Shown here: positions 43,321-44,873 of the stretch, piece after piece
Numbering within the stretch: the stretch's first letter is position 1
Layout of the letters: each line of letters opens with the position of its first letter
Virus record (IMG/VR): IMGVR_UViG_3300045988_149840
Coordinates: 1-45,249 of that record
Reading direction: 5' to 3' (one strand)
Source: a virus
Length of the DNA: 45,249 nt
The notes under the pieces: model-generated
Told to the model about the DNA's origin: nothing
Seen by the model: the letters and a program-made list of their open reading frames with translations, nothing else
Databases searched by the model: none
Made by a program: the position numbers and the translations under genes

Positions 43321-44857
43321 TTCATCAAAAATCGGCGCGGAGACCCCTGCCTTCAGGCAGGGGAGGAAGCGCCGCCTCCTTTCTGAGTTCGGTTAAATAG
43401 GTCCTGCGTCTTTCGTGCAGGCGAAGCTTTTTGAAGCTGATGCCTGCTGATATCCGCGTTCCGTCAAGCTTTCGCACGTCGAAGCTGCCCGTTGATCGAC
43501 GGCCGAAGATGAAGGCCGTCTCGCCCTTGCAGGCGACTTTGTCGAAAAGACGAAAGCCCTTCACTTCGTACGGCGCCTGATTGCGCTTGCGAACGCCGCC
43601 TTTCAAGATCGAAAGCTTGTGAATCTGCCGGTTGTGACGGCGCGTCTGCTTTTGGTAGTAGAAACTGCCGAGCCGATCGGCCTTGAGGTTTCCGGCGATG
43701 CAGAAGGCGTCGGCGCAATGAGATTTCGCAATCCCGTGCTCGATGCGCGCATGCTTCGTCAGATAGCCGTAGGTATTGCGCACTTCCAGTTCCGGATGCG
43801 CCGCCTTCAGTCGATCGAGCACCTTCCATCGCATGATGCCCATGAAGGCTTCGGCTCTGAACGACGCGCCGCGCTTGATGCTGAGCTTGATCTCGCCGCG
43901 GTGAAGCGCCTTGTGGCACGTCTCGCAGAGCGTGATCAGATTGCCTGGCGAATCGCCGCCGGTGCGCCTGGATTCCAGATGGTGAACGTTGAGCACCGGA
44001 TCCTTCGACCTGCCGCCGCAGTGCCCGCAGACATGCCCGTCTCTGAAGAGCACGTATTCGCGGACATTCCAAAAGCCGAGCTGTTCGCCCTGCTGATAGC
44101 CTTTTCCGGAAATGTCGGGATTCTTCAGAAGCTGCATGTCGAAGGATGCCGTTTCGACAGTGATCTTCGTTACGGGAAGAATCCGCAGAACCGCCTCTAT
44201 GCGCGAAAGATGCGCAGCGATGCGGTTTTCCACCGACGGGGCAAGCCAGCCTTTGCGCTTGCTGCGGACGCGGTTGTCGAACCGCGGCGCACGATAGCGC
44301 GTTTTGCGGCTGCGGCGTGCGCGCCGCAAGGCAAGACGGGCTGACAGCAGATCGGTGATGTCCTGCCGGAGTTCGATCTCGGACGCATAGAGTTCGGCCT
44401 TTTCCGTCGAAGCGGAAAGACCGACATGCTTGTAACCGGCATCAACGCCGAGGCTCACCGGCTGCTTCGATTCGCCGCCGGCAGTCGTGAGCCGAATGGT
44501 GAAGGGCGTCCGCCTCGCCACTGCTGCTTTCTTCTCTTTCAGGAGAATGCGCGCCTTTGCCGCCGAACACGGCATCAGGGGCTTCCCCCGCATGTTCAAA
44601 ACAAATACTCTCAAGTTTTGTCTCCTCGGCCCGAAGGCCGGTAATGATCCTTCGCCAATGTTGGAAGGGGTTTCCTGCCGGCGGCACCGCTCCTACCTCT
44701 CAGAGCTTTTAACCGCCGACCGCAGAGCGCGGAACTAGGATCTACATTCCGCGATGCCTGTGTATTCCCAACCAACGTAGTCCGCATTCCTGCGGACTGA
44801 GGCTAGTCAACCAGAGGCTTTCCACAAGCCTCGGCCTTCAGGCCGGGGTAGTTGACT
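43321..44857 (-). mobile_element. IscB-only (TnpA-less) IS200/IS605-type OMEGA element, copy 2
   Basis: The span is delimited by similarity to 718..2255, and the flanks are unrelated. The upstream boundary abuts the stop codon of the pentapeptide gene. Confidence 0.6.
43325..44614 (-). CDS. iscB: IscB RNA-guided nuclease, copy 2
   Basis: Motifs seen:
- N-terminus NMRGKPLMPCSAAKARILLKEKKA.
- RuvC-I SLGVDAGYKHVGLS.
- RuvC-II ITVETASFD.
- HNH CGHCGG..NVHHLESRRTGGDSPGNLITLCETCH.
- RuvC-III KSHCADAFC.

The start is TTG, preceded by a GAGGAG RBS. Confidence 0.95.
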   Translation of the reverse strand: MRVFVLNMRGKPLMPCSAAKARILLKEKKAAVARRTPFTIRLTTAGGESKQPVSLGVDAGYKHVGLSASTEKAELYASEIELRQDITDLLSARLALRRARRSRKTRYRAPRFDNRVRSKRKGWLAPSVENRIAAHLSRIEAVLRILPVTKITVETASFDMQLLKNPDISGKGYQQGEQLGFWNVREYVLFRDGHVCGHCGGRSKDPVLNVHHLESRRTGGDSPGNLITLCETCHKALHRGEIKLSIKRGASFRAEAFMGIMRWKVLDRLKAAHPELEVRNTYGYLTKHARIEHGIAKSHCADAFCIAGNLKADRLGSFYYQKQTRRHNRQIHKLSILKGGVRKRNQAPYEVKGFRLFDKVACKGETAFIFGRRSTGSFDVRKLDGTRISAGISFKKLRLHERRRTYLTELRKEAALPPLPEGRGLRADF

Positions 44858-44873
44858 GCTATTTTTCAGCATC
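44615..44873 (-). ncRNA. omega RNA of IscB copy 2: scaffold 44615..44857 plus predicted guide about 44858..44873
   Basis: It has the same architecture as copy 1, with the identical core at 44683-44785. The predicted guide GAUGCUGAAAAAUAGC is the reverse complement of the last codons plus the stop of the pentapeptide gene. Confidence 0.85.

Follow-up and report, generated by a model that had tools for sequence, protein, structure and literature searches.

The 45,249-nt stretch analyzed here, which makes up IMG/VR virus record IMGVR_UViG_3300045988_149840 and is called the window throughout, carries on its minus strand, at positions 43326..44856, a 1531-nt unit in which an omega-RNA gene is followed by an intact gene for the nuclease IscB. 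This unit is a non-autonomous element of the IS200/IS605 family (ISC type) of insertion sequences (IS), referred to below as copy 2, with copy 1 being a diverged module of the same kind near the start of the window. The first 55 nt of the window (1–55) match its last 55 nt (45195–45249) exactly, so that the window is a circularized assembly of 45,194 bp, and on the circular map the two modules point the same way with 1060 nt between them, in agreement with the separation of about 1.05 kb and the shared orientation given in the original prediction, which had been made from the letters of the sequence alone. A pentapeptide-repeat gene, co-oriented with copy 2, runs from 150 to 1 and continues from 45194 to 44859 (minus strand), in frame over the circular junction; the terminal overlap joins its halves in frame, and its 3' part including the stop codon occupies 44859..45249. 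Genes for phage Erf and SSB proteins lie immediately downstream of the element.

The IscB of copy 2 (IscB-2) is encoded by an open reading frame (ORF) of 429 codons on the minus strand (43325..44614) with a TTG start. The part of this frame that lies within the element, with its end set by the empty sites described below, is 43328..44614, and the stop codon TGA (43327–43325) is assembled from the TG of the element and the A that forms the first base of the adjacent motif in the flank. IscB-2 shares 81% identity and 89% positives with the IscB of copy 1 (719..2011, 430 amino acids) in a gapless alignment of 429 amino acids, which bears out the earlier estimate, made by eye, of a second full-length protein about four fifths identical to the first. 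Both proteins match the RRXRR profile of Pfam (PF14239; E = 5.7e-64 and 1.2e-61) as well as the HNH profile. In IscB-2 the RRXRR match extends over residues 3–176 and the entire profile length and includes the N-terminal PLMP motif (KPLMPC, residues 11–16), while the HNH match (1.4e-07) covers residues 196–239, in which the motifs CGHC...NVHH...N...CETCH hold the catalytic histidine and the zinc-binding cysteine pairs. The best matches to IscB-2 among solved structures are themselves IscB proteins (11hr, 1.9e-43; OgeuIscB, 7xht, 3.2e-41), and alignment to these two places the catalytic positions at D58, E154, H211/H212 with N225...H of the HNH domain, and H299/D302. The split-RuvC residues stand in the contexts LGVDAG (D58), TVETA (E154) and KSHCADAFCIA (H299 and D302). 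This alignment agrees with the earlier statement that all catalytic motifs are intact, and the candidate role of a nuclease-dead regulator similar to TldR was rejected because every catalytic residue is in place. The ratio of nonsynonymous to synonymous divergence (dN/dS) between the two iscB genes is 0.094 at a dS of approximately 1.5, and IscB has evolved under purifying selection. The activity predicted for IscB-2 is RNA-guided double-strand cleavage that depends on a short adjacent motif in the target.

The omega-RNA scaffold lies at 44641..44856 on the minus strand, upstream of iscB and co-oriented with it, and is a full-length match to the HEARO family (Rfam RF02033, model positions 1–211) with 137.9 bits and E = 1e-28, where the gathering score is 83; the corresponding match of copy 1 is found at 2038–2254 (minus strand) with 128.9 bits. 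Copy 2 therefore has an omega RNA of its own, as had been proposed. The first inner hairpin differs between the copies by compensatory changes, with CCGGCC/GGCCG in copy 2 and CCTGCC/GGCAG in copy 1. RF02033 comes without downstream structural elements (Meers et al. 2023, 10.1101/2023.03.14.532601). The interval 44615..44640 (minus strand) is a likely 3' extension of the omega RNA and consists of a small hairpin (44640–44636 paired with 44631–44627, UUCG loop) followed by a Shine-Dalgarno-like GAGGAG before the TTG. The hairpin of this extension is retained in copy 1 by way of a compensatory change (CCGGTC-GCAA-GACCG).

To determine the exact ends of copy 2, we compared the occupied site of the window with empty sites in related contigs, two close relatives being found through an IMG/VR search with the neighboring Erf protein and further empty sites with a 20-mer of the left flank. 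The empty site GATGCTGAAAAATAGCA|ATGAAGGCC is present in three independent related contigs, namely L001, L082 (IMG/VR ..._166273) and L111 (OJPS01021592.1); L001, L081 and L115 are one contig (ORUB01000544), L115 being its ENA record, from a human gut metagenome. In all of these the site reads ...GATGATGCTGAAAAATAGCA|ATGAAGGCC(C)CG...terminator...erf, such that the pentapeptide gene is directly followed by erf, which is the arrangement that had been suggested for an empty site in relatives. BLASTN aligns L001 5564–5940 with window positions 45233–44857 and L001 5941–7583 with window positions 43325–41679, and over 1096 nt of its erf side L111 matches the window at 99.0% identity. The sequence of L001, ...ggcaagatgatgctgaaaaatagca|atgaaggccccgacaaggggcttttttag...ATG(erf), corresponds in the window to ...aaaaatagca|GTCAAC...GATTTTTG|atgaaggcctcggaacaaccggggcttttttag, which means that 1531 nt sit exactly at the junction (TAGCA-1531 nt-ATGAAGG in the occupied allele vs. 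TAGCA|ATGAAGG in the empty one). A shift of either boundary by 1 nt conflicts with TAGCA|ATGAAGG of the empty sites, so both ends are fixed to the nucleotide. No target-site duplication is seen when the occupied allele is compared with L001, L082 and L111. By this comparison the insertion is scarless and the pentapeptide ORF undamaged, as anticipated, and copy 2 occupies a point past the stop codon of the pentapeptide gene but ahead of its terminator. Three other hits to the 20-mer site pattern (L083, L113 and L114) were rejected as unrelated chance matches.

The predicted guide, AUGCUGAAAAAUAGCA, occupies 44857..44872 (minus strand), the flank DNA directly 5' of HEARO model position 1, and this model position is also the first inserted base as set by the empty sites. 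The guide length of 16 nt is taken from OgeuIscB. The guide is made up of the last 4 codons of the pentapeptide gene (D-A-E-K), the stop codon TAG (44861–44859) and the bases CA (44858–44857). Similarity to copy 1 had been described as ending at 44857, 1 nt before the TAG; the empty sites place the start of the element at 44856 instead and leave the two flank bases CA between the TAG and the element. The earlier view of the guide as the last codons and stop of a phage gene thus keeps its central part, the origin from the flank of the insertion site, while its register has to be moved by 1 nt to 44872–44857 so as to include the CA. The guide segment is phage coding DNA that lies outside the element, and its transcription is a prediction. 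The same 16 nt are found unchanged across all empty-site contigs, in which the match to the guide is 16/16 (in fact at least 29 nt are identical) and is followed by ATGAAG, and the copy-2 target is the conserved 3' end of a coding sequence. Within the window the guide has no second occurrence, and the bases next to it where it stands are GTCAAC.

Comparison of the empty-site junction with the guide, which had been put forward as a means to deduce the transposon/target-adjacent motif (TAM), gives a perfect guide match followed by ATGAA. This motif (TTCAT on the plus strand) lies at 43321..43325 (minus strand) and belongs to the flank rather than to the element, since the empty sites already contain ATGAAGG. 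The iscB 3' end is followed by ATGAAG in copy 2, by ATGAAT in copy 1 (722–717), by ATGAAC in a mini-element of L001 and by ATGAGC in the viral contig L105. Across the 44 unique flanks of the copy-2 IS family at this end, ATGA is invariant (44/44), position 5 is most often A (26 flanks, as against 10 with T, 6 with C and 2 with G), and the sequence beyond +5 is random. The flanks at the omega-RNA end are mutually unrelated, and the motif is thus found on one side only. ATGAA is the reverse complement of the wild-type GstIscB TAM, TTCAT, which was determined experimentally and is common to TnpA and IscB (Meers et al. 2023, the work on which the donor-joint cleavage model rests), and ATGA also satisfies the first four positions (NWRR) of the OgeuIscB TAM, NWRRNA.

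Each end of the element also carries a subterminal hairpin. In the naming of Meers et al. 2023, which follows the TnpA convention, the omega-RNA end is the right end (RE) and the iscB 3' end the left end (LE). The RE hairpin, CCCCGGCCTGAAGGCCGAGG, at 44829..44848 (minus strand), is supported by reading of the sequence and by the HEARO structure line and at the same time forms the omega RNA's first inner hairpin. The LE hairpin, CCCCTGCCTGAAGGCAGGGG, at 43344..43363 (minus strand), was found by reading of the sequence, lies within the last iscB codons, resembles the RE hairpin, and is conserved with compensatory variation over approximately 50 host-genome copies. The two similar hairpins take the place of terminal inverted repeats, and in relatives both persist by way of compensatory changes.

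Beyond the TAM, an intrinsic-terminator-like hairpin with a U tract is located at 43295..43319 (minus strand), with a fold of −16.3 kcal/mol and z = −2.8; a consensus terminator scan did not list it, and direct folding supports the hairpin. It had been regarded as a terminator belonging to the IscB module. The hairpin and its U tract are indeed there, but they lie outside the element and are found beyond the uninterrupted junction of L001, L082 and L111, and since the hairpin is present in every empty site, it is the terminator of the pentapeptide gene, i.e., pre-existing phage DNA that now follows iscB.

One further relative, L112 (ERZ1664504 NODE-407), shows a different state of the same site. 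At 2948–2986, after ...GAAAAATAGCA, it has 39 nt, GTCAACAACCCCTGCCTAAAGGCAGAGGCTTGATAAAAG, and then ATGAAGGCC. This remnant matches the 5' end of copy 1 (window 2254–2216) at 100% identity, and not that of copy 2, and the deletion that produced it ended exactly at the boundary between element and TAM. As judged from its sequence, the L112 allele keeps the protospacer, lacks the TAM next to it, and would resist the copy-2 guide.

A genome scan, with each species represented once, returned 85 relatives, the closest of which (84–89% amino acid identity) come from Parasutterella excrementihominis, other Sutterellaceae metagenome-assembled genomes, Sutterella and Duodenibacillus massiliensis. The family is multicopy in these bacteria, with at least 6 copies in P. 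excrementihominis YIT 11859, at least 14 in D. massiliensis, and dozens over Parasutterella, Duodenibacillus and Sutterella together. Since the closest relatives are found there, Sutterellaceae seems the likely host family of the phage, and the phage gene content, that of a BPP-1-like podophage (Head-tail_con, GP7 capsid, nozzle, Bbp16), fits this assignment. IscB is also common among viral contigs, where a single query gave 188 confirmed stretches and several contigs hold two copies, and HEARO has been annotated in cultured phages. L105, another viral contig, has at an unrelated site a copy-2-type element that is 97–99% identical and has lost 835 nt internally; L194 and L197 have copy-1-type elements, approximately 91% identical, likewise at unrelated sites, and their homology to the window stops at 2254 and ~719, which corresponds to the end of the element together with ATGA. 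No Pfam match to Y1_Tnp was obtained for any of the 116 window ORFs that reach 100 amino acids. The absence of TnpA is expected as most iscB elements are non-autonomous, with only about 1.5% of iscB genes having an adjacent tnpA (Meers et al. 2023). The only Y1 (HUH) TnpA-like ORFs encountered belong to viral contigs with distant IscBs (37–45% identical to copy 2), at ~26–420 (plus strand) in L101/L102 and at ~2701 (plus strand) in L109, and the motif scan found none beside Sutterellaceae-type elements.

The two omega-RNA genes of the window share a run of 105 nt that is 100% identical (44681–44785 vs. 2079–2183, minus strand). In the same tract L105, the closest outside relative of copy 2, has 4 mismatches, and host copies whose IscB is 84–89% identical have 8–12. 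A 39-nt exact pattern from this core has no match in IMG/VR, which suggests that the identical core is specific to this genome. Given that the identity persists despite an iscB dS of ~1.5, intragenomic gene conversion between the omega-RNA genes would be the simplest explanation. Such conversion would make the two scaffolds interchangeable.

The reading that we favor, and to which we assign a probability of roughly 75%, is that copy 2 came from the Sutterellaceae pool, takes its guide from read-through transcription, cuts empty alleles and is copied by recombination. The element would have originated among the many copies of its IS family that Sutterellaceae carry, and it inserted without duplication beside TTCAT, between the stop codon of the pentapeptide gene and the terminator. 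Read-through from the co-oriented pentapeptide gene would then yield an RNA in which approximately 16 nt of flank, the predicted guide, are fused to the scaffold, IscB would bind this guide-scaffold RNA, and the complex would cut DNA bearing the 16-mer followed by ATGA(A). The target would exist only where the element is absent, either at the joint left by TnpA-mediated excision or in the genome of a co-infecting related phage. The occupied allele is protected because GTCAAC, rather than the TAM, follows the protospacer. A break in an empty allele would be repaired by recombination with an occupied copy, by which the element would be reinstated or spread, and the phage Erf and SSB encoded just downstream could contribute to the repair. 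The parts of the element, its exact ends, the lack of a duplication, the TAM and the natural empty alleles with their perfect match are all observed at this locus. Guide transcription, cleavage and homing are the steps that we infer from the behavior of the family.

Several observations weigh against this reading. The copy-2 site is occupied in one genome only, that of the window, and with a single occupied genome the spread by homing stays a proposal. A clean empty site for copy 1 was not found. The purifying selection on IscB may have acted mainly in bacterial chromosomes and not in phage, and the phage-borne relatives are decaying (in L001 the omega RNA and the last 67 nt are left, and L105 has its 835-nt deletion), which speaks against iscB being strongly maintained in phages. 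TnpA was not found by a motif scan of the window and of 3-kb Sutterellaceae flanks, a crude scan with low sensitivity outside the window. Finally, no sigma-70-like promoter was found on the minus strand in the interval from gene to element; the scan is uninformative for this host, and its negative outcome counts as weak evidence for read-through as the source of the guide.

A more far-reaching and tentative proposal, which we would rate as somewhat less than an even bet, is that the locus records an RNA-guided gene drive between co-infecting gut phages in the form of filled, empty and degenerate alleles at one site. The window would represent the filled allele, L001, L082 and L111 the empty allele, and L112 with its 39-nt remnant the degenerate one. 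IscB would cut relatives without the insertion, and the adjacent Erf/SSB module would copy the element in. Alleles of the L112 type, in which the protospacer is kept and GTCAAC replaces the TAM, would be drive-resistant escapees. The 105-nt identical core would probably be kept by gene conversion, so that either IscB could use either guide.

Among the alternatives to cleavage and recombinational copying, the one that survives best, though we consider it unlikely, is that copy 2 is an inert passenger, moved by a host TnpA from a Sutterellaceae chromosome and tolerated in a harmless intergenic spot with no role in the phage. The many near-relatives in host genomes are in accord with such an origin, as is an insertion between stop codon and terminator that disrupts nothing, and the internal deletions in related phage copies together with the count of one occupied genome against three empty ones point the same way. 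A mere passenger, however, does not sit well with two phage iscB ORFs that are full length with all catalytic residues present, or with a guide that perfectly matches natural empty alleles next to the correct TAM, and the same nuclease family has been found experimentally to cut such joints (Meers et al. 2023). It seems quite improbable that IscB and the omega RNA serve as a weapon of competition that destroys co-infecting relatives without the insertion, with little or no copying of the element. Related phages do carry empty alleles with a perfect target, one genome holds two modules with two different guides, and reviews describe such killing (marker exclusion) for free-standing phage homing endonucleases, but the flanks of occupied and empty alleles are so similar (99% on the erf side for L111) that repair and conversion would be expected rather than pure killing. 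The chance that host-chromosomal IS reads were misjoined into the phage contig is very small. In favor of such an error, the presumed host has many copies of the IS family, and the assembly is of the metagenome style, with a k-mer overlap of 55 nt. Against it, both junctions coincide exactly with IS ends and lie at a canonical TTCAT site, phage DNA continues unbroken to either side in the same order as in the empty-site relatives, and neither copy is identical to the other or to any copy in the databases.

Every testable defining feature of an IscB, of a HEARO omega RNA and of a non-autonomous IS200/IS605 element was found in copy 2, TnpA excepted. The closest parallel is the GstIscB element of Geobacillus stearothermophilus (Meers et al. 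2023; Nature 622:863), which likewise has the omega RNA upstream of iscB, a scaffold that comes from one transposon end, a guide that is the outside flank, a bias for a co-oriented upstream gene, and no adjacent tnpA, and whose TAM, TTCAT, is the ATGAA found here on the other strand. The catalytic positions are nearly the same (D58/H209/H210 in Gst vs. D58/H211/H212 here). Unlike GstIscB, which resides in a Geobacillus chromosome, the element described here lies in a phage genome with a Sutterellaceae-type host. This 45-kb genome holds two diverged copies, it is the TAM that completes the iscB stop codon, and cleavage and excision are predictions. OgeuIscB (7xht, 7utn, 8csz) has the same order of domains, namely PLMP/RRXRR, split RuvC and HNH (E = 3e-41), a large HEARO-type omega RNA with a 5' guide, and a 3' TAM of the NWRRNA type, to which the motif here conforms in its first four positions. 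It differs in that its alignment to IscB-2 is limited to two stretches with low identity, in its length (496 amino acids vs. 429 here), and in position 6 of the TAM, which is not constrained to A here.

The proposed copying resembles the action of Seg and Mob, which are free-standing homing endonucleases found in T-even phages, and the TnpB drive of plasmid IS605; in each case a nuclease cuts the co-resident empty site and repair copies the element. Recognition here would differ from that of Seg and Mob in depending on an RNA guide and a short motif and not on protein alone, and self would be told from non-self by the presence or absence of the insertion, which for a phage-borne IscB is a proposal. 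The account in PMC13565253 cites Mears et al. 2025 as reporting TnpA-independent, TnpB-driven spread of IS605 among plasmids, and the same nuclease-driven spread has been proposed in reviews to take place between co-infecting phages, under the term “non-restorative homing” (PMC13565253). Copy 2 is therefore best seen as an ordinary member of a known family, the value of which lies in the natural series of alleles at one phage site. While the biochemistry of IscB is well characterized, its behavior in natural populations, especially those of phages, is mostly a matter of conjecture, and this locus offers a natural test case with an occupied allele, at least three empty alleles, one degenerate allele and a plausible host family in Sutterellaceae. 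It also provides the TAM of the compact clade of IscBs of 429–430 amino acids (ATGA, with a bias for A at +5) without experiment.

The copy-1 element comprises 1532 nt (723..2254, minus strand), its ends being in accord with the points at which the homology of L194 and L197 stops. Its guide would be CGGGCCGUGAAAUGUG (2270–2255) and its TAM ATGAA (722–718), and the last base of the final Arg codon and the stop codon of its iscB lie within the TAM. L082 was considered as an empty site for copy 1 and set aside, for the element is absent there, but the flanks have diverged and the Bro-N remnant next to copy 1 is gone, such that the match to TAM and guide is unreadable. This remnant, at 678–722 (minus strand), is a leftover of 42–45 nt from inside a Bro-N/antirepressor-like gene, and the hairpin at 691–711, which had been described as a different hairpin lacking a U tract behind copy 1, is part of it and does not stand in for a terminator. 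The Bro-N-type gene is intact in L001 (3761–4471, 237 codons), and of this gene ~150 nt 5' of the remnant and ~520 nt 3' of it are missing from the window.

The pentapeptide gene itself varies among relatives. The 55-nt terminal overlap of the window falls inside its 15-nt-periodic repeats, and the number of repeats in the assembly may therefore be unreliable; the gene has 161 codons in the window vs. approximately 151 in L001. In L002, whose Erf is 95% identical, the whole gene is missing and window position 171 is joined to 43305, with the junction (L002 1355–1377) inside an overlap of ~12 nt between two similar terminator tails. The comparison with L002 suggests that the gene acts as an optional cassette carrying its own terminator. 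L002 was uninformative as a second relative for the insertion site because the pentapeptide gene is absent there, and a composite transposon, with the two IscB copies bracketing the gene, was rejected because the limits of the segment missing from L002 do not coincide with IS ends. A megablast search of INPHARED with 5.2 kb and 24 kb of the window found no close relative, the sole match being an iscB gene, 75% identical, in an unannotated gut phage.

The decayed elements of L001 and L105 may be described as orphan omega-RNA mini-elements, which keep both ends and a flank guide and would need IscB in trans. That of L001 (3443–3760, ~320 nt) consists of a full HEARO RNA (137.2 bits), the first iscB codons and the last 67 nt of the element, and it abuts the start codon of the Bro-N-type gene; that of L105 (2759–3458) has lost 835 nt of iscB. 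The position next to a start codon is frequent in this family. At 40 of the 51 unique sites (the window, L001 and L084–L257), an ORF of at least 60 codons begins exactly at the ATG of the TAM ATGA, relative to a background of 34% for the remaining ATGA sites of that strand (binomial p = 1e-10). In most copies the stop codon of iscB lies +1 to −31 nt from this ATG, and it overlaps the ATG as ATGA or TGATG in the two window copies. By this count the copy-2 IS family is usually placed right at the start codon of a downstream gene with the same orientation, a habit that suggests either translational coupling or a strong survivorship bias. Copy 2 is itself an exception to this placement, as its ATG opens just 10 codons.

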